DNA of 64,000 nucleotides from Moniliella sp. 'wahieum' (GCA_003971905.1 RSEE01000006.1:248001-312000); one strand, 5' to 3'. Positions 18,801 through 61,318 are shown, counted from the first letter of the stretch. The notes: a model not told the origin generated them from the letters alone. Program-made: numbers and translations.

Positions 18801-19373
18801 CAAGATGTGTCAAAATAGGGGTTGGTTGCCGCAAGCGCAACCGAGAAAGGAAAAGTCAGTAGTGACGGGTCCACAGTCGTCGGAAAGATACTGGAAAATT
18901 GGTGGCCTTATTCTTAGGCCGACCGACTGGGACTTGGGCGGGGGGCGACTGGCCTATGTTGTCGCGCGTCGGGCGCATGGCCACTCCGGTCCTCGTACAT
19001 ATGGTTTAACCAACTATCGTCGAATTTGGTTGGACTTCGGAGCGCGCTCTACTGGGCATATGTGCAGAGCAGGTGGGCCTTAGCTTGGATCGGATCATCT
19101 CATCTGATCCAACGCAGCCCATCACAAAAGAACAAAAGAAAGAAACGGTCGAATGAGAGTTGAGAACCTTCTTTTTGCCTTCGCTGAGTGTCATTGGCAA
19201 AGCAGGTTTACGCCTTACTATATACTTTCGAAATGGCATGGCAGCAACTGTTGGTTTGTTGGCAGCATCGTATAGGGGGATTAGAGGATGCAGTTTTATA
19301 AGGGCAAGCACTGGGAATACTGATCTTTTGTGTCATATGGATGAAGGAAGAAATGATAGAGAAGGAAGCACAA

Positions 19374-19468
19374 GGTCGATTAGCTCAGTTGGTCAGAGCG
19401 TGGTACTAATATGTCCTCCAGGAGTGTTGGTGATGCCAAGGTCATGAGTTCAAGCCTCATATTGACCA
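19374..19468 (+). tRNA. tRNA-Ile (anticodon AAT) with a 21-nt intron at 19412-19432
   Basis: Acceptor stem GGTCGAT/ATTGACC, D arm GCTC-AGTTGGTCA-GAGC, anticodon stem TGGTA/TGCCA with loop CT-AAT-A^A, T arm ATGAG-TTCAAGC-CTCAT, discriminator A. Confidence 0.95.
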
Positions 19469-19469
19469 C

Positions 19470-19476
19470 TTTTTTT
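19470..19476 (+). terminator. RNA polymerase III terminator (T7)
   Basis: Run of seven T immediately after the tRNA. Confidence 0.85.
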
Positions 19477-19483
19477 GGCCTGC

Positions 19484-19670
19484 GTTGAACGTTGATCGAT
19501 GATCGAAGAAGCTTCAAATTTCAAAATGCTTTCGAAGAAAGATCGAAATAGGATCTCGTGACGCGTGAAGCTTGAAGCTTGTGAAGCTTAAAGCTTGCAG
19601 CTTGATTAATGGTTTTGATGATTGGCCAACAGCTGTCACATGTCAAGCTTCAAGCTTCAAGCTTGTCAAG
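19484..19670. repeat. Cluster of chained TSA-palindrome-TSA units (7-bp period)
   Basis: TGA-ACGT-TGA-TCGA-TGA; TCA-AATT-TCA; TGA-CGCG-TGA-AGCT-TGA-AGCT; TCA-CATG-TCA-AGCT-TCA-AGCT-TCA-AGCT. Confidence 0.9.
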
Positions 19671-20568
19671 TGCCCTAGTGATATGTATGACAGTGATCTG
19701 GTGGCTACTAGCTACTGCGATGCGAAAAGTTTAACCGAGCGGACAGAGAAGGGTTTTATTCGTTTCTGGATGTTGGATGGGAAAACAGCCGCCAGGCACC
19801 GCAGCTGAACTGCAGGTGGGGCCGGTGGGGCTGTGGCGTCAGCACAGTTGGGCCGTTGACGCGGTTGACGTGTTGCTGCCATTGCCATTGATGCGGATTC
19901 GCTGATTCATGAATCGATTGCGATGAATACAGGAGCTTGGATAGGCTCGGAGGCGCCTGGAAAGAGGGTATATGCAGCAGATTGCAGCTGGCTGCGTCCA
20001 GCCGACTGGGTTTGCTGCTGGGTCGATGTACGATGCGAACGTGCTAGACTGGGCCTGGACGACGGAGACAGGCAGGTACCCGAATGATCGATGATCGATG
20101 GTTACTGATTCACGCTCTCATCGATCTCTCATCGATCTCATCGATCGTTGATAATCGATAACGGGTAACGTTTTGCTGTTTAGTACACTGAATCGGACAA
20201 CCGACACGCCACGCGCTGGGCAGGGCAGTGGGCCACAGTGTCCGTCCCATTGCACCTGTCTCATCTTCTTCGTCTGCTCCACCCGCCTGCATCATATCCG
20301 ACACCCAAGGGCAGCGGAGGGGCAGTGTGCGGGATGCATGATCAGAGTTGTGTGCTGGTGTGCTGGGCAGACTAGATGCATGATGTGGTGCACAAGGGCA
20401 CAGAGCCGCGCTGCGAAATCCGTGCCTCCTCCCCTCCGCCGCACTAGCCAGCACTCGCCCCCAGGATCCATTCCTCTGTGGCGTGCCGTTCGTGATGGTC
20501 ACTGGTCGCTCGTCACGCGGCCTTAGTCACTAGTCACTAGCCATTCTCGACGTCTGCCGCTGGCGCCA

Positions 20569-20623
20569 TCATGCATCATGCATCATGCATCATGCATCAT
20601 GCATCATGCATCATGCATCATGC
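20569..20623. repeat. (TCATGCA)7 heptamer tandem repeat
   Basis: Seven perfect copies plus a partial copy, about 200 bp upstream of the G-alpha ATG. Confidence 0.95.
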
Positions 20624-20820
20624 GTCCACAGCACCCTTGCGCCTCGCTAGTTACGAGTTACTAGGAACGAGTTTACATGTCCCAGCCACACAACGTGCTT
20701 CTGTCTGGCCGCAGCAGCCCCTCCCTGCCGCCACCACCACCACCACCTCCACCTCTACCACCTCCTCCTGCTCCTCATCCTCCTTCCTGCTCCTCTCCCT
20801 CTGCCCCCACCATTGCATCC

Positions 20821-21889
20821 ATGGGCTGCGCTCCCTCCCGTCCCACCGACCAGCTCGCCGCCCTCACCCGCAGCGAAGCGATCGATGCCGAGCTCAAGGC
20901 GACCCGACTTGCGCAGCGAAACGAGGTCAAGCTCCTGCTCCTCGGTGCCGGTGAGTCCGGCAAGAGCACACTGCTCAAGCAGATGAAGCTCATCCACCAC
21001 GGGCCCTATTCTCAGGCCGAGCGCGAATCCTACAAGGAGATCATCTTCTCCAATACTGTTCAGAGCATGAAGGTTCTCCTCGAGGCTATGGATGTGCTGC
21101 AACTACCGTTGGGCCAAGCTCGGAGCGTTGCCGCTGCCCAATGCGTTGTTGCTGCACCCGATGAGGCCATTACTGGCTTCTTGCCCCCCGAGCTTGTCGC
21201 GGCCATTGGGGTTCTGTGGTCTGATGCAGGCGTACAGGCCTGCTTTGCCCGCTCGCGCGAGTTTCAGCTCAACGACTCTGCACCCTACTACTTTGACGCG
21301 ATTCACCGCATCGGCTCCGCACCTATATACCCACTGACCAAGATGTCCTCCGTTCCCGCGTCAAGACGACAGGCATTACCGAAACACGCTTTGAAATCGG
21401 CCGGCTGAATTACAGCATTGTCGATGTGGGAGGACAACGATCGGAACGGAAAAAATGGATCCATTGCTTTGACAGCGTTACTGCCCTTATCTTTTTGGTC
21501 GCGGTAAGCGAATACGACCAAATGCTCTACGAGGACGCCAACAAACCAACCGCATGACTGAGGCTTTGACCTTGTTTGAGTCCATCTGCAACTCTCGCTG
21601 GTTTCTCTCCGCAGCTCCATCCTTCTCTTCCTCAACAAAACCGACCTGTTCCGTGCCAAGCTTGCCATCTCACCTCTTGGCAACTACTTCGCCGACTACA
21701 ATGGGCCCGCCAGCTACGGCCCGGCAATTGAATTTCTAGAGGCCAAGTTCGTCGGCCTCAACCAGAGCAAGTCCAAACAAATCTACCCCCATACCACTTG
21801 TGCCACCGACACCACAGATCAAGTTTGTCATGTCGGCCGTGAACGACATCATTGTCGGCAACAACTTGAGCAGTGTCGGCCTTCTCTAG
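20821..21889 (+). CDS. Heterotrimeric G-protein alpha subunit, apparently intronless, frameshifted in assembly
   Basis: MGC lipidation motif, [51 protein letters not shown]-terminus NNLSSVGLL*. Confidence 0.96.
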
Positions 21890-24800
21890 CTCCGTTCCCT
21901 CCTCCCCTATTTCTTCACAACAAGCGCGTCGATCTCTGCTGCCTTGATTCCACAACAAGGTTATCGCGCGTACCTTTACTCTCCTGCCCTTTTTTGCCGC
22001 TGGCACACACATCATGTTTTACATACCCAACCCCTTCCCTCCACACGGTCCCTCTTCAAGATTCACTCTTACTTCATCCGTTTGCTTTGTGTGTCCTGGT
22101 TCCATGCCCCCTTGCTACACCCCTTTCGGCCTGATTGTCACCCCTTCACCGCCCCTCCTCCCCCCACCCCTGACTCTCATCTGCCTGCCCCTAACACCAT
22201 TCGTGTACATTATTGTCACTTGGACCTGGCTGTTGTGGGCCATGAATGCGATCTGTGGCCATCGCAAGTTATGGTAGGAAACCCAAGTAATGATGCAGGT
22301 GGCTTTTCATATGACATCTGATCCCTTCCCTTCCTCCTCGCCGTCACCAACCATCTCGTCAGCGGTCTCATTGGAGGAATTGATGCTGGAGAAAGTGAGA
22401 GATTCGAGTCATTGTCTCACTCACGTGCCCATATGGACTCCATGGCATGCTTCGTATCAGTTGGGAGGTCCTGTGTCCACCTCTCAAATGCGCCCCCCTT
22501 CCTTCCGTAGGTACATGCGCCTTTAGTCCGTTCCTAGATGGATCCAGTCCATTCTTCTCCCCTTTCCTGCATCACACGTCTCCTGACGGCCGTATTTTAA
22601 ACGGGAATAAGACCGACAGCGGCAGAGCCATCGAGGAGAGCCACACGCGGATGTGGACTGATACTAGCACCAGCTCTTCAACCCCTCACCACGACTCGCA
22701 CCCGTGGATCCGACGAAAGCAAAGGCACATTGGCATCCAGCGGGGGCGGGGGAACAATCCTTATGTTGGCCCCGATGCGTTTGGGGCGCGTCTCACGTCT
22801 TTCCCCACCAGGTGATCCTGCAACGGATATATGCATCGTGATAACAGCGTCTTTCACGGTCAAAGGGATGGGTGCAGTTAGTTTTGCTGTGTGCATTCTT
22901 CGTGACCAACAGGACCCTGAATCACTCCATGCGACTAGTGCCGTCACGTCCACAGATCAAGTGTGTGCGATTGTCCATGTTCGGGGTCGGGCGTTCAACT
23001 GTGGCCGTGCACGGAGGGAGCCATATGCGGCCAATCTCGACTCAGGAAGGTGAGTAGGTACCAGAGTATCACGTACACGTTTTCGAGAAATGAAGAAGGC
23101 CATCGTCTCCGTGTCCAGCGCCTGACTAGCTGTGAGGGGCACAACCAAGCCCTACAGGATCTTCCGGCACCCCCACAGGATCATCCTTTTTGTTTCGCCA
23201 GCAAATGAGGATTGGCATAGGTATCCCGTGCGGGGAGCGCTAGGTGGAGAAAGTCAGAGTTGCAGTCGAAATAGAGCCAGCGGAACCCCGGGCAGGGGTA
23301 AAACGTTTGATAAGCGGGGCATGAGCACAGCGAATGGGTGCGAAGGAGAGCGAAATCGGCATTGCGTTCCGCTTCGTACCTTGATCGTCAGGGATTGGTG
23401 ACATGGATGGCCTTTTGGACTGTCATCGCTGTCACATGTCATGGGCGGGACCCGAACTGGAGCCCAACCCACGGTTTGGGGATGCTCTCCTTTGAAAGAA
23501 GAGGGTTCACACGGGTTTCGAGCCTGACCGCTATTGGCGGATCCAAACAGCGCTGGAGACGAGGTGAGGCATCTCATTTGGGGATACGGCTCGCGTGGCG
23601 CAGAACCTTGAAGGAGTTTGGCCGGAAGGTTGACGCAAGAAAAGACAAGGTCAGACAGTTCCAGTCACAGAACAATCAACTCCTGTAGGATCTAATTGCA
23701 AGACCCGCGCAGAGAAGACTGAAAGCTGGAGGGGATCGACGGCAATGGATCATGTCTGGTCAAAAGGACTTGGAAAGGCCAAGGAGTGTGGTCACTGAGG
23801 CAGGTCGGGAGGTCTGCTGGTGAACTAGGGAGCATAACGCGGGTGTTGACTGGTGGCGGGGTCTCAAGGATGGATTCGCAAGGGGATATGTTGTTACATA
23901 ATGACCCGCTATTACTAAGAGAGGAAAGAACACAAAACAAAAGCTATACAGACAGAAGGAACTTCAAGAAATCAACATACAACGTAGAAAGTGGAAGGAG
24001 AATAACGGCAAATGACTCTCAAAAGGAGCGCAGATCAAGCCGGGAAAGGTTCACACAATCCTGAGTTGATGGTAACAGGAACAGTCAACAAGGAAAAAGG
24101 CCCAACAAAGTAATGGACAAGTTCTCCACACCCTCTGCAAGAGCGTACCAAAAGGCATGAGCATGTGAAAGAGGGGGTTGTGAAAGAGAAAAAGGTACAA
24201 GAAGACGCTAAAATGCGCAGTTACTAGCTATACAGATGAACACGAAGAGGGAACATGTGTGGGTGGATCGAGGGATTGTGCGAGGCGTCCCCGTTCCCCC
24301 CCTGTTCCGCCCTGATCTTGTTGCGCCTCTGGGTTGTCCTTCGCATGTTTGCATCTCCACCACATCCTACCCTGCCTTGTTTGCCTCCGACAGAGATGCA
24401 CATTACGATGGATGGTGGCTGAGCGCGCTGAGCTGAGCTCCGAAGCTCTGAGGAACGATGATTCATTCTTCTGCCATCCCGAGGTCTCTGAGGTGCCTCG
24501 GCTTGAGAAGCCGAAGTCGCCGAGGCCGACGGTCCCCCTCAGCCCTCTCGGTCTCTTACCATGCACATCCGGGGAGAGACGCTCTGAGACACTGTCTATA
24601 TCAGATCAGTTACTGACTACTACCTTAAGCATTGGAATGGATGACATGCACAACATGAGATGGGCATTGTGTGACCGGTGACAGTGACATGTGCCAGGCA
24701 GACGATGATCGATGATCCCATCTTACTTTGGTGGCCGCTGCGATGATCTTACTTCAACGTTCAACACCTCAGGCCTCAGTCTACTTCAGTAGCTTCCGTA

Positions 24801-27291
24801 CTTGATGGCATCTCTCCATTGCGCGCTACTCCGTACTCAGCACCCCACAGTCTGAACGAAGCGAGTGAAGCTAGTGAAGCGAAGAAGCGTCGTCCCACGA
24901 ACCCATCGATCATCGATTCTCGTTCTCCGTTCGGCTCGCCGGACTTTGGTGCGCTGGCGGCGATGTATGTGCCTGGCTTCCGCAGCAACCTAGTGACTAG
25001 ATGCAGGCCAGCAGCGCAGGGCGTGGCAGCGCGCGCTCTCGGCTCAACTTGGCTCAACTGAGCAGCGGATTGGGGTGTACGACACTGCCCCCGTGCGGTT
25101 CGGGACAACCGCCGCCAAAGTGCGGGGTAAGGTGGGGGAAGAGCATTATGCATTTTGGCCGAGAGCACGTGCCCGCACCGGGCAGTGCAGGACAGCGCAG
25201 CAGTGCTGCGGCCCAGGCGCGCGGGGACCCGCTGCGCCCGTTCCCACCCACGCACGCGCGTGTGCTACGAGTGCGTTGCCATTGTTCATTCAATCTCGGA
25301 TGGTGTCTTGCAGTGCTGGTGTACAATGGTATCCAGAGGCTAGAGCGAGAGCAGCAGACCAACCCGCCTCTCGGCTGGCACCGCATCTCTTTTTTTTTTT
25401 TTTTTTTTTTTTTTCTCGGCGCGCCGCATCTGGGTTTTGCACATGCGGTGTATCGCCTTGCCCGTTTGCCACATGTTTTCAGATCCACCTCCAACCACAT
25501 GGGCAGTGGGAAACGGGCGGACGTTGCAAGCCTCTGTGCCCACGTCCGGCCTTTCTCAAACAAGAGAGTGAGAGCCAAGTGGTCCCGCATTGCCGCAGCA
25601 ACTGCCAGCCCTGCCCAGGGACAGATGACCAGCAGCGGCGCCGTTGGACTCTGGTCGCAAGAGATGGCGGCTGTTGGGCGGGGGAATGGTGATCATCACA
25701 TGGCAAACGGTACAGAAGCCCCTGGAGCTACGCACCCACTCGGTACACTTGGGGCAGTAGTCGTAGCTGGCCATAATGAACCAATCACATCATCCGCACA
25801 CAATCAGAAAATGTCAGCCACACGCAGAAAGCCTCTCGCGATTTTTTCGCCCCCCCCCCCCTTCTCTGCCTTCTTCACAGAGCTTCCAGACGGAAGGCGC
25901 AGCCCATACATGCGCAACACCGCCAGAGGGGGGAGAAGAGCCAGGCAATGACAGCAGTACCGAACTTTTTGTAATCGCCCACGCTTTCGGAAGCTCACAC
26001 GTACCCCATGTCAGAGTCGTCTGGCTGAATTCGCGGTGGGATGATGGCCTTGGGGTGGACGATGTGCTGATGGCACCTGCTGCGGCCGCAAAAGGCGTAG
26101 AGTGGGACGGACGGAAGCGGGCCGATGTGGAGAGAGACCAGCGCGAGGGGTGGGCAGAGTGTGGTGCGGGTGCGGACAGTTGGTGGGGAAGAAGTGCAAT
26201 TATATGCGCAACTGGCCGTAGTGAGACCCAGGCGGCCGGGCGGGCGGAGCACATATCTAGCTGTGTTGGGTTACCGGTTACTAGGTTACTAGCATTACTA
26301 GCATTGCAGTGCCCACAAGTCAGACACGCGGACAGTCGGTGGCCTTCGAAGCTTGCTGTTGACGTTGACGCCAGAAAACAAAGGACCCGCTTGCTGTGTC
26401 CTGTGGGGGAGCTATCCGCTCAGGGCGCTCAGGTCCCGGGGTGGGCATGTTGGGTGTGGGGGGGCGTGCAGTGCAGCGCCCGCCCGCTTCCTGTTTCGCA
26501 GAGCCCCGAACATCGCTGGCGCAAAGCCCGGGGGCGTGCGCCTCGCACTGGCCGAGTGTGCGGACTGGAGGAAGAACCGGTACTACTGTAGCCCCTACTA
26601 GTAAGCCCGTATTGCACCAGCCAGCTGAGGCGCGGCCCCCAGTGCTGAGGCGGAGCACTGAGACTGACCACTGGGCTCAGGGGAGGCTCAGCCTCAGCTT
26701 CCGAGCGTGCTCGGCGCCGCTCGCACTCTCCACACAGGGGGCGGACAACCCATTGCAGCCGAAGACACCATCTCTTCCCGCACCTTCCCGTCCGGCCTTC
26801 GCCATTCCTTCACAACCCACCGGGTGGGGCACGCGCCTCCACCCATTGCACTCTCAGCGCCTCCAGTTGCACAGCACGTACCAGTGGCTAGCCGCTGTGC
26901 TAGCCCGGCAGATGACCAGATCATGCAGATCAACCACAGTCTGCTGTCATGTCCACGTTCAACGTTCAACGTCCAACGGTCGCACCATCGGCTCCTCTGC
27001 CGTCTGCATGCATCAAGGATCTCGATCACCTCACCCGTTGCCCCCCTCAGCCTCAGGTCTCTCCCCCGTCAGCTCAATCACCGGTCATCGTTACAGGCAC
27101 CACGGGCCAGCGCTGTATTTTGTCAGGTTGCCCACACTTGGAGTGGCTGCTCTTGGCAGCTGTCTTGCGTTGGTCCGTGGGAACAGGGCCCAGCCAGGCC
27201 CAACTCCATCCATTGTGGTTGGGAACGTGGTGGGCCAAGCCCAAAATTGTTTCAGGTTTACTGCCAATGGTACCCAATGCTGCCTGACTGG

Positions 27292-27562
27292 GTTTTACCA
27301 ACCTATGCTTGCTGTACACACCTGCATGGCCACGTTTCTCTTAAATCATGCGGTAGGCCTAAGGTCTAAAATCGTAGCTGTAATCCCCACCATTTAGCAT
27401 CAACACAATACCGTGGAGGTTATAACCGTTTTACCAACCTATGCTTGCTGTACACACTGCATGGCCACGTTTCTCTTAAATCATGCGGTAGGCCTAAGGT
27501 CTAAAATCGTAGCTGTAATCCCCACCATTTAGCATCAACACAATACCGTGGAGGTTATAACC
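27292..27562. repeat. Tandem duplication of a ~136-bp unit (2 copies)
   Basis: 27292-27427 and 27428-27562 are identical by eye except for one C indel. Confidence 0.95.
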
Positions 27563-27916
27563 TCTTTTGTCAACGTCGGGCGCCAGCCGTAAGCCACTCA
27601 GGGGCAGATTCAAGGACGAAGCTTCAAGCTTCAAGCTACGTCTTGCTTTAACCCTCGGTGTCATCATACTGTCCCCAGTCCCAACACAGGCAGCGGTGAA
27701 GCTTTGGCGGCAAGCATGGGCTTGCACATTCAATTTTGTGGAGGGGACACAAGGCATCTCCGCTGGGTGGGCCGGAAGCGCCCGTGCTCCAAACTGCCGA
27801 GCATGCTAACATGGACACGCAAGAACGGGCCGATGGATCCTGTCACAACGGGGTGAGACGAGGAAAGAGGCGGGCAAACATGACGGGGGCGGAAAGGCAA
27901 TGGGAAAAGGGCACCA

Positions 27917-28420
27917 TTATGAGCGGGGCTTCTCTCTTCTTCTCGCGGAAGAGGGCGTAGAGACCTAGAGGATGGCAGTCAGTACATGTAGATACAGACA
28001 CGGGCAAAATGCCAAAATCAGAAGAGAGGTACATACCCACACCCGATACCTTGATCACGCGGAAACGCACACCGGGGATGTCACCCTTGGCCTTGCCCTT
28101 GCGGCCAAAGCCCTCAATCAGAACCTCGTCGTTCTCGTCCACGAAGTTGAGGCAGCCGTCATGGGCACAAAGGCAGCAACCTTCTTGCCGTTCTTGATGA
28201 GCTGGACACGCACACACTTGCGAATAGCCGAGTTGGGCTGCTTGGCCTCCACACCCACCTTCTCCAGGACAATGCCCTTGGCTTGCGACGAGCCGGCGGT
28301 GGGGGAAGACTTGTAGAAGTTGCCGAGGGCGCGCTTCTTCCACGCCTTGTCGGCCCACTTGTTCTCACGACGGGTCGTATGCAGCTTGCGCGCTGCGTTG
28401 AGGCCACTGGGTTTGCCCAT
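27917..28420 (-). CDS. RPS23: 40S ribosomal protein S23 (uS12); intron 27965-28036
   Basis: [81 protein letters not shown]. Confidence 0.98.
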
Positions 28421-28496
28421 CTTGTTCGAGGTGGTGGGAAAGCTTTGCCCTGCCGCAGGGATTGCCACGCCCACTTGGCCCAGCCCTGGCCACGGC

Positions 28497-28639
28497 AAAA
28501 AACCCTAGCAGCGCAACACGCTGCGGCAGAGAGCCCTCAACCCTATTGTGGCACACTGGCGCCATGCTTCCAACCCATCCATTTGCCCAGCAAGTGCAGC
28601 ATGGCCCCACTTGGGTCCTCGGTTCGGGATGTTAGGGTT
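28497..28639. promoter_or_regulatory. Bidirectional ribosomal-protein-type promoter with two oppositely oriented telobox-like motifs
   Basis: AAAAAACCCTAG at 28497-28508 and TTAGGGTT at 28632-28639, between divergent RPS23 and RPL27-like starts. Confidence 0.5.
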
Positions 28640-28879
28640 GATCGATGATTGATGATCTCGATGATCCCCCAAATTCCTCCCGATCCACCCGCAATTTAGC
28701 TCGGTCGATCAGAGCGCAGGGGCAACCAACACCACAACACTCAGTGTACGTGCCAAGGAACAGGCGCGGTGCTGGCGGGGATGCTGCTGGTGCCTAGCCC
28801 CTCTGTCCCATTCCCTTCTGTGTAGCGCTGTATGGACGAGCAAGACTGATTGGCTGATTCCTGTGCCCGATCCAGGTCC

Positions 28880-29044
28880 ATGGCGCGCATTTACAAATCC
28901 GGTAAGGTCGCCCTTGTCCTCCACGGCCGTCAGGCCGGCAAGAAGGTTGTCGTCATCAAGCAGTACGACGACGGCACCAAAGAGCGCGCTTACCCTCACG
29001 TTCTCGTTGCTGGGATTGAGCGCTACCCACGTAAGGTGACCAAG
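28880..29044 (+). CDS. RPL27: N-terminal 55 codons of 60S ribosomal protein L27 (eL27, KOW motif), fused in frame to the downstream helicase; putative 5'-UTR intron 28746-28875
   Basis: [55 protein letters not shown] matches the eL27 N-terminus. The C-terminal part (KPFIKVVNYNH...) is absent. Confidence 0.9.
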
Positions 29045-32000
29045 GCGCCTCCTGGTATCAATCGTGGGTTTGCGACCACGTCGGTTCCCAAGCAGCTGCA
29101 CAACCCCCGTCCGCTGCGGCTCCGTCCCCATCTGCTCGCCTCAAGGCAAGGACACTGCCGCGCCCGTCTCAAGTGACAAGGACAAGGAAACGGACAAGGA
29201 CGCTCCCTCTTGCCGTGTTTATGGTTTCGATGAAGACGATACTGAGCAAGCTTCTGCAAGACTTGGTGAACCAGTACTGGGACAAAGCCGATAAGGAAAT
29301 TGCCAAGCTGTGGAAGGTGCGTTGGTCTCCCCTGGTTATGCTCTCTTCTCCCAACTGACCGGATTTGAACCTGCCGTACAGACACTGGAGTTTGACCTGC
29401 GTCAGGCCGATACGCTCTTGTCCTTTGACTTCGAGCCCGATCTGCGGGAGGAGCTGCTGGACCTTGTATCGTACTCCTATCGTGTGCCAGAAGCGGAGGA
29501 CAGGACAAGCCTGTTGAGGAGGAAAGGAAACATCTGCTAATGGGAACAATGACAAGCCCAAGCAAGACGGCACTCCGCTTTCAGCTGAAGCTGCCGAATT
29601 CGTTCCTGGTGCTGTCGTATCCACCGAGACTGTGGCTGTTGCTGCAGAGCCGGAGGCTGCAACTGTGCCTTCTCACCCCCCGGCACCCGAGTGGGAACGC
29701 TTCCTCCTCCACCGTTGAAGGATGCAACCCAGCCACTGGACAAGGCTTTGCCCCGTGCGCTTGTCACACGTGGCCTCTTGCTCAAGCTTGGTTACTCTCA
29801 AGAGCAGATCGAAATGGCGCTACGGAACGCACCCCGATTTGAGTTGGAGGACTGCCTGACCTACCTCGCCCTCCGTCTGTCCGAAGCGGAGCTGGAAGCA
29901 GCGACCAAAGCAATGGTAAGCGCCAGTCCAGGTGCTGGTACTGGGGAAGAAGATGAGACCGTGTTGGATCGCAGCATCCCACCCTCCCATCCGGCGTATA
30001 CGTTCCAGCGTACGATCACCAAGGCCAGTGAAGCGAATTTTGTGCCTTCCCCTGCCCCCGCAGTTGAGGGAGAGGGAGCACAAGAGCAGGAAGGAAAAAA
30101 GAAACGGACGATTCAGCCTCCTTCGGACGAGACGATCATCCTTCCGATGTTCCGGGTGAGGGAGCTGCTCAAGCATGCGCTTTCTCTTGCGAATGAGGCT
30201 CAAGCCCACCTCACTGATGAGGAGGGGGAGCTGGATGTAATCACTGCCGGCGCAATCAAAGCCTGGGTGGCAACCAAGATCTGGACCAATAAGGTGGAGG
30301 AGGTGTATGCCCAGATGAAGCGCGCGCTCGGCCAAGCCCACCTGCTCAATCCACAAGGAATTGGGTTCGAGACGGCCAAGGTTGTTCGGCAAGTCCATGG
30401 CAGTCTGTACGCGCGTATCGCCGAGGCGGAGAAGGTACCTCGCTTCAACGCTGCGGCAGCCGAGAGTGTCTTGACTGCCGCGCTGGGGAAGCAGCGTGCC
30501 AGTGACCGCCCTCGTGCCGGGAAGGAGAATTGGGAACAAATCATCGCACTCGCTGAGCAAGAGGCGGCGGAAAAGAAGAAACAGGCAGAGGAAGCGGCGG
30601 CGGCTAAGGCGGTTGCTGAGGCTGCTACGCAACCCCCCCGCTTCTGAGGAGGAGACGTCTTCCTCCTCCCAGGAGGAAGGGACAGCAAATCTAGCCCCGA
30701 TACCGTTGCACCCGCCTCCAAGCCGGAGGAGGATGAGGAGGGACTGGGAAGAATGTTCCAAGATCCCGGGGAAACAAGCAAGGACAGCGAGCCCCAAGCG
30801 ACAGTGACAGTACGCAAGTTGCCCCCCAAAACCAAGAATGGAGGAAACACACCCCAGAGTCTACTGCTACAGACCTTGCGCCGGCTTGATCCCACGGCGA
30901 CCGCAAAGTACGAGACGTTGAATGGACCTGGTCGCTTCTTCCGCAGTAAGTTGACGGTGCAGTGGACGGGCCCCCATGTGGCGTCGGCGCAAGCGGCCCT
31001 TCCAATCTCTCAACGGCGTGCTCCCGACATGGTTTTCATCGACACATTTACCATGACAGGCGAGTGTGCCGAGACCAAGGCACAAGCCCATGACTTGACC
31101 TCTACCCTGGCTCTCAACTGCATTGAACAAGACCGTCCAGTTCAGCGGATGCTCGGCGCAGGCTACCGTGAGTGGTGGGACCAGATTGAGAATTGTCGTT
31201 CGCGGGAGCGGAGCACGGCGGCGCGCCAGACCTTGGCCCGGGTCAAAGACTTGGTTGAACCGCGGTTGGTTGAGGCGCCTGCCCCTCCTCCATACTGCAA
31301 CCCCCCCAAAGCCAAGCCCGCGGCGGATGAGGGACAAACCACGCTTTCCCTTCAATCCAAGCGCCCAAGCGAGCGTACGACGGCACGTTTGCGCGAGGCT
31401 CTCGAGACGCGTCAAGCCTCCCCCGCGTACGAGGCGATGCGACCTGGCCGGGAGCAGTTGCCAATTTATGCGTATCGCGATCACATTCTCGACATTCTTG
31501 ATCACAACCAAGTGTTTGTCTTGTCCGGCGAAACGGGTTGCGGTAAGTCGACGCAAGTGCCTGCGTACATTCTCGAGCACTGCTTGAGCCGCTCCCAGCC
31601 ATGCAAGATTTACTGTACCGAGCCGCGTCGGATTTCGGCCATCTCTTTAGCCGAACGTGTCTCGGCCGAGTTGGGTGAGGCCAAGCATGCTGTGGGTACC
31701 GCAGAGAGTCTGGTAGGATATGCGATCCGTCTGGAGAGCAGTGTCGGGCGGGACGCCCGCTTGATCTACGCCACCAACGGTATTGTTCTCCGGATGCTTG
31801 AAGGTGACGGCTTCAAGGACATTACCCACATCATTATCGATGAGGTTCATGAGCGTTCGATCGAGTCGGATTTCCTCTTGATCATCCTCAAGAGCCTGAT
31901 GGCGGCCAAGCCCGAGCTCAAGGTTGTGCTCATGTCCGCAACGTTGGATGCGGAGCGGATTAGTGCCTACTTTGGTGGTTGTCCTACCCTCTCGGTTCCT

Positions 32001-33959
32001 GGACGCACATTCCCCGTGCAAGTGGAGCACCTCGAGGACGCGGTGGAATTGTGCAAATATGTGGTAGAGCCCAACTCGCAGTACGAGCGGAGGGACGTGA
32101 ACAAGAACGGAATGTCTGCCGCGCAGAAGAAGAGCAACCTGGCCAAACTGAAGCGCAGCAAGGATCTTGATGAAGACGTGGACGATGGAGAAGGAGACGG
32201 GGAAGAAGAGGAAGATGCAGCGGCACTGGCCTCCAGCTCAGGTTCGGGAGAAGGCCGCGTCTACTCGCCAAAGACGATTGAGATGATTGATCGGATGAAC
32301 CAGAATGTGGTCAACCACGAGCTGATCGTCAAGCTTCTGGAGCAGATCTGCTTTGATACGCCCGAGTACCAGCGGTTCAGCAAGGCCATCCTCGTTTTTA
32401 TGCCGGGGTTGGCCGACATTCGTGCCCTGCACGACGTGTTGATCGGGCATCCTCGCTTTGACCGCGGCTTCCGCATTTACCCGCTCCATTCGTCGCTCAG
32501 TAGTGACAGCCAGCAACAAGTGTTTGAAGTTCCGCCCGAAGGAACGCGCAAGATCGTCATCTCGACCAACATTGCTGAAACGGGTGTGACGATCCCGGAC
32601 GTGACGTGCGTTATTGACTCGGGGCGGCATCGGGAGATGCGGTTCGATGAGAAGCGCCAGATTTCGCGGTTGGTCGACTGCTTCATTGCCAAGTCGAACG
32701 CCAAGCAGCGCCGTGGCCGTGCGGGCCGTGTGCAGGAAGGGTTGTGCTTCCACCTATTTACCAAATTCCGTTATGAGCACCACATGGAGGAACACCCACT
32801 TCCCGAGATGCTACGCTTGTCGCTTCAAGATCTGGCACTCAAACTCAAGGTCATGAAATCAAGATTGGCACGTCGATTGAGAATGCCTTGTCGCAAGCGC
32901 TCGATCCCCCAACGGCTGTGAATGTGCAACGGGCTGTTGCCGCGCTGGTCGAAGTCAAAGCACTCACCACAACAGAGGAGATCACTCCGCTCGGCCGGCA
33001 CCTGAGCAAGCTTCCGCTCGACGTGCACATGGGCAAGTTCCTGCTTGTCGCCACGTCGATGCGATGCTTGGATGCGGCCCTGACCATCACAGCGGCGCTC
33101 AACGCCAAGTCGCCCTTTGTGGCGCCGCTGGGGAAGGAGAACCGTGCGGATGCGGCCAAGCAGGGCTTCAAAATTGCCGACTCGGACCTGTTGACGGTGG
33201 CGAATGCGTTTAACAGTTGGAAACGTGCGGTGGGGAACCACGTGGGTCGGCAATTCTGCCAAAAGAATTTCCTTTCGCCTCAAACGCTGGGCGAAATGGA
33301 AGAGCTACGGCAACAGTACTTGCTGTACCTGATCGACGCTGGATTCGTCTCGGTCCCGGGCGGCGCACGGAAAGAGCTGGCGCGAGTCCGGGTGCGCGGG
33401 TGGGGTCGGCCGCGGTTTACGGCGGTGCCAGCGGCATACAACGAGTATGGCTCCAGCGCCAGTATCATCCATGCGGCTGCGGCAGCAGGGCTGTACCCTA
33501 AGGTGGTGGCGCTCGAGAGAGCACGAATGCGATGCGCACGATTGGCAGCCAGCAACCGATCGCAATCCACCCAGCGTGAATGCACGCCGGCGGCTGGGGG
33601 ACGAGTTGCCGTCGAGCGTGCATCACTTGCTGTACTTTACGCTGCTGCGCAGCCGGCGCTTGTATGCGTGCGAGACGGCGCCGCTGGACGACCGGGCGCT
33701 GTTGCTGATGTGCGGGGAAGGGGAGCCACGGCTGGGGGCGCTGACGCTGGTGCTGGACAAGAAGGTGCGGGTGCGACTGGGCAGCCTGCGGTCGTTGGTG
33801 CTGCTCCTGGCGCTGCGCGAGCAGCTGGGACGCTTGCTCCGCAACTCGTTCCGCAATCCAGGCCAGGCCTGGAGTCCCCGCCAAGAATGGTTCTTTGCCG
33901 CTGCCATTCGCCTCCTCGGCATGGGCACCCCCGGCGACGCTCAGTTGCGTCCGGCATGA
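29045..33959 (+). CDS. DHX29/DHX57-like DExH-box RNA helicase (UBA-like, dsRBD-like, DEXH, HELICc, HA2, OB); intron 29317-29381; frameshifted
   Basis: N-terminal [26 protein letters not shown] (UBA-like), [62 protein letters not shown]. Confidence 0.93.
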
Positions 33960-34234
33960 GTGCTGGTGGGAGCGGCATGACGATCATACATACAGGCAGA
34001 GAGGTCACATCTTCACACTCCTCTCTCCCCCCATTCAAGTCTCGAATGCATTTTATCGCTTGCCAGTCTATGCACACAACATGGTGCTTTCCGTAGCCAG
34101 TTCCCTCCTCATTAACTTTCACTGGTTGAGGGGACGTACTATTCACGCACGATATATACATTTCCGGTACTTCTTGTAGACATATACTTGCTTTCGCTCA
34201 ACCCGACGTCGCCAGAGACTGTGGCTTCTGGTCT

Positions 34235-35846
34235 TCAAAATGTAATCTGGATCGATCCTAAGTCAGAGTGCAAGCGCGTCTGGGACGGCACCTTCTCGAT
34301 CTCACAGCGGGATGGCAACGAAGTGGTGTCGAGCCGAGGAGCCTCCGCTTGGAACTGGGCATCATCATGAGAAACAGTAAAGACACAGCCTTCGTATTTC
34401 TCACCCAACAATGACTTCTGATGGTTCCAAGCCCAATCACGCGAAGAGTTCGCTTTCTCCCAGGCCACATGTACGCTGCCAGTGTCCGAGGTGGCATTGA
34501 CGGTACCGGCAAACGAGGGAGGGTACACTGTATACACCGATCCCGTTTCGCTCTCCAAAGTGGAAATGACGTGCTCAGCAGGGGTCGTCTTCACATCGTC
34601 CTCCGATTCTTCGTACTCGTCCGTAAAGGCGGCCTTAACCCACCCGAGATTCGAGGTAAGAGAAACTGTGGCCTCGTCTTTGCTTTTCGGGAACAGAACG
34701 GGGGTGAGACCCGCGACAGAGACAGTGCCCGTGTTGCTGTGAAGCGTAAGATGCTGGACCACAGCGGCCCTGGTAATCTTTACTGATCCCACATCCGCCT
34801 TCAGTTCCACCTTCGGCGCATGAATCTTGTCCACTGTCACAGTGCCGCTTTGTGACTGGAACAGGGCATAGGCCGCCGCACTCACCTGCCCAAACTCGAT
34901 CGTGCCCACGTCCGACTTGGCCACGAGAGTTTCGGTCTTGACCGCTCCGGGTGCCTGGATCGAGCCAGTACTAGACCAGAGCTGCAGGAGCTTCGTAATG
35001 GGAACAACCTAGAAGCAAAAGTACCATACAAGGTCAGTGGGTTGCACTCCTGCACTTATATCCGTCTCTGACAGGTTGTGAACGTACCCCCAACAATTGG
35101 ATGTTGCCGACCTTGACATTGACGTCCATTGCACCCACATCCAATGCCACATCCTCCGCAGTGAAGCTGGCCGCATCACCACGAACGTCGATCCGCTTAA
35201 GGGCGCCCCGCTCCGCGTCGTTTGCTTGAGGTAACTGGGCCGTGAGATCGACGTGGATGTTGTGGTAGGACGAGTGGAAAGGGTGATGGTTGGAATAGAC
35301 ACCGACGCCATGGGTACCCTTGGACGAATTGAGGGCAACGATGGTCAACTCATTCTCCAGCACCCACGCCTCGTCTGCCCACGCCTCGACGTGTACGGCG
35401 ACCGATCCGTTACTGCCCTCACCGAGAAGAGAAAAGGAAGTGAAATGGCGTGCACCAAAGCTGTGGAAAAAGAGCTGGTCGGGCGCGTCAAACGTCAAGT
35501 CGGCCGTACGCACATAACGGCGTTTCAGCCCGTCTCCCACGCGACCGTGGCGCGGCCGACGCACGTCGCTCCACTGCGCGGTGGCAAGGATGGCACCCTC
35601 GTCGGTCGGCACCGCAGGCGGCTTGCTCCGGGGAACATCGTGCCCGCTGTGCGAGCCACCAAACCAGTGGCCGGACCAGGCGAGATAAAACGTAACCAGC
35701 ATGGCCAGGCCCACAGCGTAGCCCAAGATCCGTCCCAGAGAGCGCCGCTTGGCAAGGTTCCGCGTACTCCCCATCCAGCGCGGCATGGGGTGGGCGGAGG
35801 CCGCGGGCACCGGCTGAGGAAGCAGGCTGGTTTGCTCTGTGCTCAT
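34235..35846 (-). CDS. Type II membrane protein with DUF4097/adhesin-like beta-solenoid; intron 35009-35087
   Basis: MSTEQTSLLP, TM segment ILGYAVGLAMLVTFYLAW, repeated S(D/N/S/E)xGxI/V turns (SSTGSI, SDVGTI, SNTGTV, SETGSV, SDTGSV, SDLGSI). Confidence 0.75.
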
Positions 35847-36402
35847 TGGGGATGCTTGCAGCTCAAAGGCGTGATGGGCAAGCGGGGGGATCGAGTAGAG
35901 GGGGGAAGCTGCGTATATATAACCACGAGGGTGACGGACGCTGTGCCCGAGGATATAATGGTGACTACTGAACGATCGACTGCGAAGCAACCCTCGCAGC
36001 TGCGGACCGCCCAGGTTGTCGCGCCCTGGCCCAGGGGCAGTGTGGGCAGCGCACGGGCCGGCATCTGATATTTTTTTGGCGTCCGGGGCCTCCCCTGATC
36101 TCGGCTGCCTTCGCCATCGCATCCACGGCGGCCGAATTCTTGGTCTTCAGCGGAGGCAGTGGTCCCACCATTCATGCGCCTGGGATTCGTGCCACTTTCC
36201 CCACCCCGGAGCTCGTGCCGGAGAGCCAAGCGACGGCGCGAAGCGGAAACCACGGCACGCCCTCCGATGACAAGGAGGAGGCTCTGTGCACGTGAACTTA
36301 CGTAACCACTGCGTTCCGCTTGCTCGCACGCGCTGCCCGTTGGTCGTGTTGATGGACGTGGCCAGTACAATCCACCTCCACCACGACGCAGCGGGCGGGA
36401 GG

Positions 36403-36773
36403 ATGAAGGTGGATGTGACGGCGTGGCGCCGGTGGGGTACTGGGTATGGGACGTGAAGGATCCGGACGAAGTGTGCGGCATCTGTCAGAACAACTTTGAT
36501 GGCACTTGTGCCACTTGTCGCGTCCCGGGCGTCGACTGCCCCGTTTCGGTGGGGGTGTGTTCCCACGTGTTCCACACCCACTGCATCCAAACCTGGCTTC
36601 ACTCCAATGCGTTCTGCCCCATGTGCAAACGGTCTTGGCGTACGTCGGTTGCTGCCCCCTCCACTCCCCTCTTTTCCTCTCGTAGTATGCACCGCGCAGA
36701 GATTGACGTTAACTTGCCTCTGGCAGAGGATGACCCGGCTGCCACCCCCGGAGGGGCAGATATGCAACAGTAG
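36403..36773 (+). CDS. APC11: Anaphase-promoting complex subunit 11 (RING-H2); intron 36640-36726
   Basis: MKVDVTAW..WVWDVKDPDEVCGICQNNFDGTCATCRVPGVDCPVSVGVCSHVFHTHCIQTWL...CPMCKRSW. One frameshift near 36430. Confidence 0.92.
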
Positions 36774-37866
36774 TCCGATCGACGAGGGTGGCTTAGGAAG
36801 TCTTGTGTCGACCTTCTACTTCCTGTATCCGGAATCCTGCCTCAACCCAGTGGGCGTACAACTTCCTGGTTATTGATTGTTCCTGTCGCTTTTGTGGTAC
36901 TGCACATTACCCCATAATCACCATGTTGCTGGGGTGGAGGCAAAGCGGTCCTAACAAGCATGTTCAATGTGGTCCAGCGCTTCGAGGCAGGCATGGAGAA
37001 AGTATGGTGGGGGTAACACGGGTTGTCAAGAGTTGGGGCCCTGCGGTAAACGTTACCACCCACACTCCTTCAATCTTCGGCTTCTGTCACGCCTTACAGG
37101 CAATACCGATGGCTCGGACATGCCCAGTGGGGGTGCGGTCCTGACCGGAGAGGCCAGGAAGTGGATACATTTTGAGAAGGAGAGCCGGTGTGGATTCAGG
37201 AGGAACCCTTAAATGATTAACAGCCGATGCTGGTGATCACAGAGGCTCGAGCGCAACTCTGAATCCATGCGCCGAGAGAGAAACGCATGGTTCCGTTCCC
37301 AGGACAGCATGCATGGCTACTAGTCTGGACCACGTCTATGTCACCCAGATGGAACTTCCTGGAACGTCTGATCGTCGCTATATCGAACAAACATCGCATA
37401 GAATAGAGAGCCTGGTGCATATCGATCATCATTGACTTCAACCTACTCTACTAAAGAGAGACGGCTGAAACTGATGCAGGAGCGGAGCAGGGTGACTGGT
37501 AAGGGCGAATGGGAAGGATCGGGGGGGTCAAACGTACACAGATCATGAAGGATCGTAAGAAGCTTGATGCAGGCCTGAGGTGCCAGAGCGAAGGGGAGGG
37601 TGCGATCAGGTCGATCAGGGAGGCATGGTACAGCGAGCAGGTTGTGGTATACTGAAGATGGCGGAGGGACTGGAAAGACCGGAGAAGGTGTATGCAGGTG
37701 CGACCTGGTGCGACTAGGCGCCTAGCGCCCCCAACGCACACTTACGTGCACAGTCTCAGGCATCATCTTTCTTCTCATCCAACTGCTTGTCCAGCTTCTC
37801 GTCGCTGGGCCGGTCGCTGGGCGGGAGGCATCAACAGCCGGCGCCATAAACCGATCGCCCACGTGC

Positions 37867-39489
37867 TCACTCATCTTCGCCTTCGATTCGCTGGGTGCCC
37901 GAGGGTCTTGTGCCCACCACCGCATCCTCTTCAAACTTGGCTCCGTGCTCTTCCCTCCCAACCACAATCACGGCCAAAAGGTACGCACACACGACGCCCA
38001 GCAAGATGCCCGATACCGTGGCGTAATCGGGCAAGCGGGGTTTGTTGTCTGGCCCAGCGGGCTTACTGGGGTCAAAGCGGGGGTTGGCAATCGTAATGCC
38101 CTCACCACCGCGCGTCTCGATCTGCGCGGAGGAGGAGGAGACCATGTTACCCAGTTGGTAGGCCAGGCCACCATAGGTTGCCCGAAACCCAGGCGGTGAA
38201 ATCTCAGAGAGGTAGACCGGCACCACACCCCATGCGCCCTGCACGCCAAACTGGATCCAGAATGCGCCAGCAGCCAAACCACTAAAGCTGGTAGGCAGGA
38301 TCCAGGCAGGGATGAGTACACCCGAGAGTACGACAAAGATGGCCATGGTCAAACGACGGCCAAGCCATTGCGAAATGTATCCGGCCAGGGTACCGCCGAC
38401 AATGGCCCCGCAGTTGGAAATGATGGTGGCCTTGGAAGCCAGTTGGCTTGCCTCCTTGCTGGGCAGTGTGGCAAGCTTGACCTTCTCGATCATGGTAGGG
38501 TACAAGTCCTCTAATTACATAGTGGGACAGATCAGCCAAAAGTTGCATACAGAGAGATGTAGTGGGGAGGGAAAATGATATGAGACGTACGAGAAGAATG
38601 GCTGAGCCAGTTAAAGCCTGACATGAGGAGGATACCATAGATGCAGCGGATCCAGTGCTGCTTGAGCATGTCGCCCATGTCAGCGAGATACTTGCGGACC
38701 TTGGTCCGGGTCGAAGTATCGACACCCGCTTCGGCTGCTTCGCGCTGTGCCTTCTTGTGTTCAAGGAACAGTTCCGACTCCCACACGATCGCACGCACTC
38801 CAGCAGCAAAGAGTGAGAAAGCGGCGCCAAACCAGAAAAGGATCTTCCAGTTGCCTGTCCGGTTGACCACAGATACATTGACCGAGGCCGCCAAAAGGTA
38901 GCCCAGGGCGTAGCATTGCTGCAGCACGCCGCTGAACAGACCACGAGGGGCAGCGGGCATGTTCTCCAACGCAGTGGCTGTGGCCATGCCCCAAATTCCA
39001 CCTGGCAAGCGCGATCACATTAGTCTCGAGTCTTTTTTCGGGAAAGCAGAGGACCACGTACCCATAAAGATGCCAAAGAGCGAGCGCACAGCGAGGAAGG
39101 GCCCGTAAGATTTGCAGTAAGAGGTGGAGAGAGAGGAGCGGAAATGCAGAGAAGGTTGACAAAGAGGGGCCACTTGCGTCCAAAGCGGTCGGAGATGAGG
39201 CCAAAGATGACGGCACCAAGGGGGCGGAAGAGAAGGGTCAAGGTGATGGAGGTGGTAATGTCGTTGGTCGACTTGCCGTAGAGAGCGGAGAGGTGGGTGT
39301 TGGCGAGGCTCACAGAGAAGAAGTCAAGTGCGTCGCACGTCCAGGCGAGCATGCCGGTGATGAGGTAGATGTACTGCTTGAGGTTGAGCATACAGGCGAG
39401 CTTGATGAGGTTTTGGTCTCGCCGTGGCGGTCGGCGATGCGCTGGTCGCGCGTGGGCAGCTTGAAGAGCCCATGGGTGAAGTCGTACAT
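37867..39489 (-). CDS. JEN1: Jen1-like carboxylate:H+ symporter (MFS, SHS family); introns 38511-38590 and 39002-39061
   Basis: AWTCDALDFF, TLLFRPLGAVIFGLISDRFGRKWP, FMG|GIWG, RGLFSGVLQQCY, signature NWLSHSS|QDLYPT, GLAYQLGN. Confidence 0.93.
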
Positions 39490-46712: not shown

Positions 46713-47663
46713 TTATTCGTCTGGGAAGCGGAAGAGCGTGATCTCCTGCTGCTTAAAGTACCTTCTGTTCTCCTCATCAATCAGCACCAGGTTGAGATAG
46801 TACGCGTCGAGAACTTTTTGTTCACGTCGCGGAACGTTGGCGTCAACTCAAAGCCCCCCAAGAACAGGCGGATGGGAATTGTCTCCCCACGAACTGGTGC
46901 CCCATCCATAATCTCAAACTTGGTGATCGTCTCGCTCTCATTGTACTGGTTGGGCGCTGTCAAGGGGGTTAATACAAGGAAGAAAGCAACGAAAGCACAT
47001 CACGTACCCGTCCCTGTTGTCTCGCGGCGGATGATGGAGAGTTCCATGTTCTTGATCTTGATGCGAACAAGCAGGAAGTAGATCTTGCCGACAATGACGT
47101 CTTTGAGGTGGTACTTGGACTTGTTGTATTCAAATTCAATGTGAAACAGTCCTCGATGCCCACCTCCATCTTGATGGGTGCATTGGACTCAGGAGGGACG
47201 AGGAACTGATGGACCCACAACTCCTTCTCTTGTACCACGTCGGCCATCCTGCGCGAGACAGTGGCTCGCAGAAAGTAGCGAGCTTGACATTGATACCGTT
47301 GTAGCTCTCAAATTGCTTTTCCACTTGCTTGAACTCAAATGGCAGGGTTAGTGGTGACGCGGGCTTGACCTCGCCGGCGCCGGAAAGTTGCTGAACGAGG
47401 GAGATGAACTCGTAGTGATTCCCTCGGTCGTAGAAGAGCTCGAGAGATCCAATGAATTCAATCTTCACCCCTTCATGAACAAGCTTCTTGCCATCCTTGG
47501 CACGGAGGATGACGACGCCCTTGACACTCTCCCCATCCACATAGACGGGACACCGCTCCCGCCGGTCCCGTGCGACCTTGACCTCGACACCGGGACGCTC
47601 CTCCTCGCCATCAAGCCGGACCTCGATGTCCAAAGGCGCTCCAAAACCAAAAAAGGACGCCAT
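46713..47663 (-). CDS. VPS26: Retromer subunit Vps26; intron 46957-47007
   Basis: [85 protein letters not shown]. Confidence 0.97.
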
Positions 47664-48069
47664 GGCAGTCAAGAGTTGTTGGTGGAAGTGCTGGTGGCGG
47701 TTGTTGGCCGGATTTGCGGCGCGATTGTTGGTGGTGTGGCCGACGAGGCGAAGTACCCACTTGATAACTCCACGACGCCGACGCTGCGTCGCTTGACGCT
47801 GAGGTCAGCAGGAGAGGGTTTGCAACTTTCAATATTTGGAGTTGCTCCTCTCTCCTCCTTTGGGATATCGTGAACGGCATTCTTCCAAGTCCACTGGCCA
47901 TCAAGTCCCGGGGCTCTACTCCATCAACCTACTGGCGGGACGAACAGCATACTAGGCTGGGGTCTCATCCTTCATCGTCACCATGGCTGAGAGCCTGACC
48001 AATGTGGCATGGTCCTGGTAACTGTCCCTATCACCATAAGAGTTTTTGGGATAATTGCCCGAGTCCCTT

Positions 48070-61200: not shown

Positions 61201-61318
61201 GGCGGGCGGTGGCGGTGGGAAGGCGGGCGCGTGATGGGACGGGTGGTCCCCCAGCGCCCAGCTCGCTCGCTCGCGACTGGCCCGGCCCGGTGCGCATCAT
61301 TGTGTTGTGAGAAGCCAA

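Follow-up and report, generated by a model that had tools for sequence, protein, structure and literature searches.

We analysed a 64,000-nucleotide (nt) stretch of Moniliella sp. 'wahieum' (GCA_003971905.1 RSEE01000006.1:248001-312000; hereafter the window, with positions counted from its first letter) in which the first part of RPL27, the gene for ribosomal protein eL27, runs directly into the gene of a DHX29-like helicase. A sequence-only reading of this DNA had placed the N-terminal 55 amino acids of eL27 in frame with the helicase, with neither a stop nor a frameshift at about 29044, and the DNA of 28880-29100 does read so. We consider it probable that this is not a gene fusion but a fault of an unpolished, error-rich assembly, which either dropped sequence here or joined two regions wrongly. 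A structural assembly error is the most economical explanation because an essential gene is truncated at its native locus, its partner is not a neighbour in relatives, the draft is rich in errors and the relatives examined hold no counterpart. The join itself would then be an assembly error.

The left side of the junction was identified with two kinds of search. When five full-length eL27 relatives were used as tblastn queries, their residues 1-55/56 matched with expect values (E) of 3e-24 to 2e-27, and positions 1-56 of a profile hidden Markov model (HMM) built from 89 eL27 relatives of 120-140 amino acids matched with E 4e-30. These matches bear out the assignment of this side to the KOW-containing N-terminus of eL27. 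The KOW motif itself scored E 0.0065, which is under the Pfam cut-off, as it likewise is in full-length relatives. The fragment is 73-87% identical to residues 1-55 of basidiomycete eL27; it is free of introns, frameshifts and unusual residues, and 55/55 of its residues are represented among the 89 relatives. Since the fragment shows no decay, the event that produced the junction would be either very recent or never biological.

The helicase on the right side belongs to the DHX29/Ylr419w type. Its core domains were matched in Pfam (DEAD, E 1.5e-11; Helicase_C, E 2.6e-15; HA2_C, E 1.8e-9; HA2_N, E 4.3e-5), and UBA_DHX29 (E 0.0062) and DSRM_DHX29 (E 0.0011) also gave matches, both under the Pfam curated cut-offs and in a region broken by frameshifts. 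Several of the listed protein matches bear the Joint Genome Institute (JGI) name DHX29. The best match, P0121 of Tilletiaria, shares 58% identity across 98% of the core. The RGFATTS motif, which the sequence-only reading had placed near the very start of fungal DHX29-like helicases, was indeed recovered there: an RG[FY]AxxS motif starts at residue 8-17 in 105/120 listed orthologues (120 listed of 2478 significant matches), and 104 of these 105 start with methionine (Met) and a lysine (Lys)-rich leader. In 80 metagenome helicase loci, taken with flanks of up to 10 kb on each side, a motif of this type was found in 52, with an in-frame Met no more than 20 codons upstream in 49/52. The window helicase has no such start of its own 8-17 residues ahead of its RGFATTS motif, and the sole in-frame Met upstream of the motif is that of eL27.

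Both genes have thus lost a part at the junction, and neither part was found elsewhere in the window. Residues 56-136 of eL27 were unmatched in the 64 kb on both strands, the next-best tblastn match having E >= 0.55 and the next-best HMM match E 6.4 over six frames, which agrees with the initial remark that no more of eL27 is visible in the window. A Met and Lys-rich leader likewise gave 0 matches in six frames over the whole window. The Ribosomal_L27e domain (PF01777) spans residues 52-136 in relative P0004 and 52-128 in P0003; the window fragment keeps 4/85 of the domain positions, 81/85 being gone, and a Pfam scan of its open reading frame (ORF) gave no Ribosomal_L27e match. The absent coding sequence amounts to at least 276 bases (81 codons of eL27 with its stop, and about 10 codons of the helicase), to which any intergenic stretch must be added.

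One frame crosses 29044/29045, and both a stop and a frame change are absent at that point. The fused frame is nonetheless not open as assembled, because a stop codon closes it shortly downstream and the helicase goes on in other frames. A real fusion would be expected to keep an uninterrupted frame, although its failure to do so is weak evidence alone, since frame changes may be sequencing errors. A frame map of the helicase, drawn with a profile built from 12 orthologues (Table 1), revealed about nine frame changes over a length of 4.9 kb. For the last three, at about 32860, 33520 and 33565, a frameshift is unambiguous, as the coordinates of both the profile and the orthologues continue across them without a gap. 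At least one further change lies between 29101 and 29248, and four are probable at about 29500, 29680, 30635 and 30690. The in-frame stops near 29535 and 30645 adjoin A3, C6 and C7 runs, and another frame is coding-like at these places.

Frame changes of this kind are not confined to the helicase. RPS23, which encodes uS12 and lies on the other side of a shared upstream region from RPL27, served as an internal gauge of the error rate. Positions 4-56 and 50-96 of its Ribosom_S12_S23 profile are split over two overlapping frames; one base has been lost near 28160, where a related contig of the public sequencing run X1 has one extra base, and one base has been gained near 27928-27935, so that the conserved C-terminal end and the stop are recovered only in another frame. 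These 2 one-base insertions or deletions (indels), within a coding sequence of about 440 nt, must be sequence errors rather than biology, because an essential and universally conserved gene cannot truly be frameshifted twice. The G-alpha gene of the window shows 4 frame changes in 1.07 kb, at about 21325, 21543, 21608 and 21815, and tblastn with P0241 and P0242 gave contiguous query coordinates across frames 1, 3, 2, 1 and 2. Its closest relatives are the Logan protein P0241 (78% identity) and then Tilletiaria G-alpha-1 (62%). Where the context of a frame change could be read, it was a short homopolymer run (A3-4, C3-4, C6, C7). The sequence is an unpolished draft rich in one-base errors, with a load of two to four per kb, and on this ground we favour a loss at the level of the assembly over a biological one. 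According to the available part of PMC8812927, the error that most often remains in long-read-only assemblies is a wrong homopolymer length, and the available part of PMC12007338 likewise describes this error type.

If the favoured reading is correct, the native RPL27, represented by its first 55 codons beside the divergent RPS23, would abut a helicase gene from which the first ~10 codons have been lost, and this only in the assembly. The organism itself would make an ordinary eL27 of 136 residues and an ordinary helicase that begins with its own Met and Lys-rich leader, and no fusion protein would exist. eL27 is an essential core protein of the 60S subunit. A haploid with only a truncated RPL27 should therefore be non-viable.

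A gene fusion that is real may be expected to recur in relatives, and this one did not. For eL27, the 55-residue fragment was searched against proteins of 98-2000 amino acids, which yielded 232 significant matches, the best 120 of which were listed and inspected. Helicase domains were found in 0/120 of these; 116 are at most 200 amino acids long, and the other four, of 234, 267, 692 and 699 amino acids, are without a helicase domain as well. Conversely, PF01777 is present among the precomputed domains of 0/120 listed helicase orthologues, against which the eL27 HMM gave no match (best E 1.9). A 5-residue word in common with the eL27 fragment turned up in seven of these orthologues, and these were dismissed as scattered single words, not homology. 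The 80 metagenome helicase loci, flanks included, likewise contain neither eL27 nor RPS23 (0/80).

These results bear most directly on the proposal of a genuine chimera, in which Dhx29 gained the KOW-containing module of eL27 as a new domain at its N-terminus, the downstream frameshifts being sequencing errors only. The frame is unbroken across the junction and the eL27 fragment is well conserved, as such a chimera would have it, and members of this helicase family bind ribosomes according to the available portions of PMC10997966 and bioRxiv 10.64898/2026.08.24.746666. Set against this are the lack of any fusion in the 120 + 120 listed relatives and 80 metagenome loci, and the retention of 4/85 Ribosomal_L27e positions, which probably leaves an incomplete fold. 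Furthermore, the left flank of the junction is the native locus and not a duplicate, so that the organism's RPL27 would have been sacrificed, and the N-terminus of yeast Dhx29 is at the 40S A-site, far from the position of eL27 on the 60S subunit. We regard a functional chimera as very improbable indeed. The idea of a chimeric helicase with a KOW module, which the sequence-only reading had offered as one of two options, could not be upheld, given a discontinuous ORF, 0 relatives with the fusion and the loss of 81/85 Ribosomal_L27e positions.

Gene order was compared on the left flank of the junction. In Tilletiaria anomala, the closest named relative for the helicase (58%) and for G-alpha (62%), G-alpha KDN41431 and eL27 KDN41433 lie on one 87459-base contig with one gene between them, an order that matches the G-alpha, RPS23 and RPL27 of the window, whereas the helicase KDN44394 is on another contig of 117880 bases. 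eL27 and G-alpha are also on a common contig in Jaminaea pallidilutea. eL27 and the helicase are on separate chromosome-scale contigs in Sympodiomycopsis kandeliae (4.50 versus 5.78 Mb) and Parajaminaea phylloscopi (9.86 versus 3.85 Mb). Altogether, the two genes are on contigs of unequal size in 9/9 species with both listed, although the comparison of contig sizes is an indirect test of synteny and, in clusters with several members, the size may come from another member. In Pseudozyma flocculosa, G-alpha PFL1_03232 and helicase PFL1_03258 are only 26 locus tags apart, a closeness suggestive of linkage, but their protein accessions run the opposite way and their longest contigs differ (959883 and 919919). 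By this comparison, the left flank of the junction is the native RPL27 locus rather than a duplicated fragment, and the helicase does not appear to be its ancestral neighbour. The other option of the sequence-only reading, a deletion that removed the 3' part of RPL27, the intergenic region and the helicase start, holds in part. A loss fits, both parts being absent from the window, but the assumption that RPL27 and the helicase were neighbours split by an intergenic region does not, as the two are on separate contigs in 9/9 species with both listed. The microhomology at Lys codons that the reading had thought plausible is likewise unsupported, the junction having no repeat.

The junction could instead be an exon boundary, with RPL27 intact but interrupted and its remainder supplied through a long intron or a split gene. 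The last two bases ahead of the junction are AG, and an intron near the helicase start does exist in three relatives: L013 (2430-2860), L014 (9590-10020) and L020 (640-1070) have a tiny helicase first exon, with a Met and a Lys-rich stretch, of 9 codons and one base. Their phase-1 intron, however, lies three codons ahead of the RGF motif and not 6, the leader being unbroken in the other 49 motif-bearing loci, and the sequence that follows the junction does not form a splice donor. On both strands, the 28.9 kb upstream and the 35 kb downstream hold nothing that encodes the C-terminal part of eL27. In addition, eL27 codons 1-128 form a single ORF in P0003 (87% identical), the nearest of the relatives represented by a genomic contig, in this case one of 21 kb, and P0363 reads straight across codons 55/56. 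A splice-type join was ruled out by this reading-through and by the differing intron codon, and we assign the exon-boundary explanation a negligible probability.

A further alternative is a real deletion or rearrangement, with breakpoints at RPL27 codon 55/56 and helicase codon ~10, that is tolerated through a second, intact RPL27. The second RPL27 would be a paralogue or, in a diploid or dikaryon, the copy on the other haplotype, and an eL27(1-55)-Dhx29 protein would be made from the RPL27 promoter as an incidental by-product without selected function. Several features agree with such an event: the join is clean and in frame, eL27's Met is the sole in-frame Met upstream of the motif, no repeat or undetermined base (N) marks an assembly gap, and the undecayed eL27 fragment fits a very recent origin. 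On the other hand, eL27 is essential and the second copy is an assumption; RPL27 and the helicase are non-neighbours in 9/9 species with both listed, and a reciprocal event would for this reason disrupt both of them together. As assembled, the fused frame is also closed, and in so error-rich a draft an assembly error is probably much more frequent than a truncation of a core ribosomal protein gene that the cell survives.

The sequencing run X1 bears on the same alternative. This public mixed run, with a 0.06 share of words, was the one run listed, and no RNA data set was listed; it was compared over window positions 19000-38999. Besides more distant contigs, it yielded short ones with 0-3 differences and a depth of 2-4.5 at 28200-28393, 29959-30184, 30307-30549, 34390-34540, 34688-34916 and 38218-38487. 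Because these contigs are near-identical at such a depth, the Moniliella organism or a very close strain would seem to be present at low abundance in the X1 sample. No listed contig of X1 bridges 29044, and 29047-29958 has no listed cover. One 219-base contig is about 90% identical to 28910-29046; its match ends at the junction and is followed by 81 unlike bases. Its depth is 3.0, compared with 2.3-4.5 for the near-identical contigs. That it diverges exactly at the junction agrees with a second RPL27 copy, but it could equally come from another species. We consider a real deletion or rearrangement unlikely. Much less likely still is a real junction with an intact RPL27 elsewhere and an eL27(1-55)-headed Dhx29 expressed from a strong ribosomal-protein promoter.

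Several observations weigh against an assembly artefact. No read or independent contig across 29044 was seen, X1 being the sole run found and failing to bridge the position. The documented errors are one-base indels, and these differ in kind from a misjoin or from the dropping of 276 or more coding bases. There is no run of N and no repeat at the junction; the window DNA, which is fungal and GC-rich (60%), contains zero N, the junction 20-mer occurs once in the window, and in 28400-29700 the longest repeats, direct or inverted, do not exceed 21 nt (71% identity). A repeat-mediated collapse was ruled out on the last two grounds. The join is moreover clean, on the same strand and in frame, with almost the whole helicase kept including RGFATTS, and a selected real fusion would look like just such a clean in-frame join. 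This appearance carries little weight, however, because the finding was selected for it. Finally, the synteny evidence from contig sizes is indirect, and the two Tilletiaria scaffolds could be chromosomal neighbours.

Table 1 Features of the window that bear on the RPL27-helicase junction, with neighbouring genes.
Feature	Position	Strand	Details
G-alpha subunit gene, intronless	20821-21886	+	Pfam G-alpha in two ORFs; tblastn with P0241, P0242
RPS23 (uS12)	27917-28420	-	ATG at 28420, intron 28036-27965, stop 27919-27917; Pfam Ribosom_S12_S23
Intergenic region RPS23/RPL27, 459 nt	28421-28879	.	Between divergent start codons; putative bidirectional promoter region
RPL27 codons 1-55 (KOW-containing part)	28880-29044	+	tblastn E about 1e-27, HMM positions 1-56 E 4e-30
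Junction	29044/29045	+	Last base of eL27 codon 55 (AAG), then directly helicase from about residue 11
DHX29/Ylr419w-type DEAH helicase	29045-33959	+	About codon 11 to stop 33957-33959; Pfam domains, orthologue profile
Helicase frame 2 segment	29033-29101	+	12-orthologue profile
Stop codon closing fused frame	29174-29176	+	43 codons beyond junction, 98 codons from eL27 ATG
Helicase frame 1 segment, ahead of intron	29248-29316	+	12-orthologue profile
Helicase intron	29317-29381		
Helicase frame 3 segment, after intron	29379-29480	+	12-orthologue profile
Helicase frame 3 segments	29706-30611 and 30717-32867	+	12-orthologue profile
Helicase frame 2 segment	32855-33523	+	12-orthologue profile
Helicase frame 1 segment	33520-33576	+	12-orthologue profile
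Helicase frame 3 final segment	33561-33941	+	12-orthologue profile
DUF4097 'toastrack' ORF	34238-35008	-	Just downstream of helicase, convergent
Sugar transporter	37870-38514	-	Partial Pfam match within a single ORF
Vps26	47139-47804	-	Partial Pfam match within a single ORF
Cation efflux	59402-61296	-	Partial Pfam match within a single ORF

Other genes of the window were recorded alongside the junction. Among 1.84 billion representatives, the DUF4097 ORF has 45 relatives at E <= 0.001 and only 4 at E <= 1e-10. None of the named relatives is fungal, the first with names being bacterial proteins from metagenome-assembled genomes (Clostridia, Anaerolineaceae). Either the gene evolves fast or it is a candidate for an origin in bacteria. 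The partial Vps26, cation-efflux and sugar-transporter matches are consistent with the same window-wide fragmentation by indels or introns.

Comparison with known systems places both halves of the junction. eL27 is a 136-residue 60S protein known from many ribosome structures (among them 6uz7 chain AZ and 3j6x chain 67), which the window copy resembles over residues 1-55 and from which it differs in being without residues 56-136, nearly the whole of Ribosomal_L27e. On the helicase side, the window gene resembles yeast Dhx29/Ylr419w, the homologue of mammalian DHX29 as described in the available text of PMC10997966 and bioRxiv 10.64898/2026.08.24.746666, in its DEAH core, its HA2 and ratchet domains and its RGFATTS motif, and also in its weak UBA_DHX29 and DSRM_DHX29 matches and its DHX29-named orthologues. 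Unlike 104 of the 105 motif-bearing orthologues, the window copy is without the Met and Lys-rich leader and has 55 eL27 residues in its place. The N-terminus of yeast Dhx29 reaches the 40S A-site and contacts uS12 and eS30, the contact with uS12 being made through an N-terminal double-stranded RNA-binding domain, as the available part of bioRxiv 10.64898/2026.08.24.746666 has it. The helicase and uS12 genes are 0.6 kb apart in the window, which recalls this contact; the closeness is probably a coincidence, the more so if the join is artefactual.

Natural fusion genes of ribosomal proteins do exist, in the form of ubiquitin-eL40 and ubiquitin-eS31. Like the window sequence, they join the coding sequence of a ribosomal protein in frame to that of another protein. 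In these fusions, which are conserved throughout the eukaryotes and undergo post-translational cleavage, the ribosomal protein is whole. The window, in contrast, has a truncated ribosomal protein, and none of the relatives examined shows the fusion. A parallel is also offered by unpolished long-read drafts as characterized in the available parts of PMC8812927 and PMC12007338. As in those drafts, homopolymer indels pseudogenise RPS23, G-alpha and the helicase, and an essential gene looks truncated. The junction itself is no homopolymer-length error, however, since either 276 or more coding bases are gone there or two stretches were wrongly put together.

Taken at face value, the locus would enter gene catalogues as a chimera of a ribosomal protein and a helicase, and the organism would seem to be without an essential ribosomal protein. 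An indel-rich draft, a break in conserved gene order and the lack of a counterpart in relatives together guard against such a catalogue error, and the assembly needs polishing and structural validation ahead of gene-level claims. If the junction were true, it would represent a rare and very young fusion that places a module of a 60S protein on a 40S-bound translation helicase, at the mRNA entry and the A-site.

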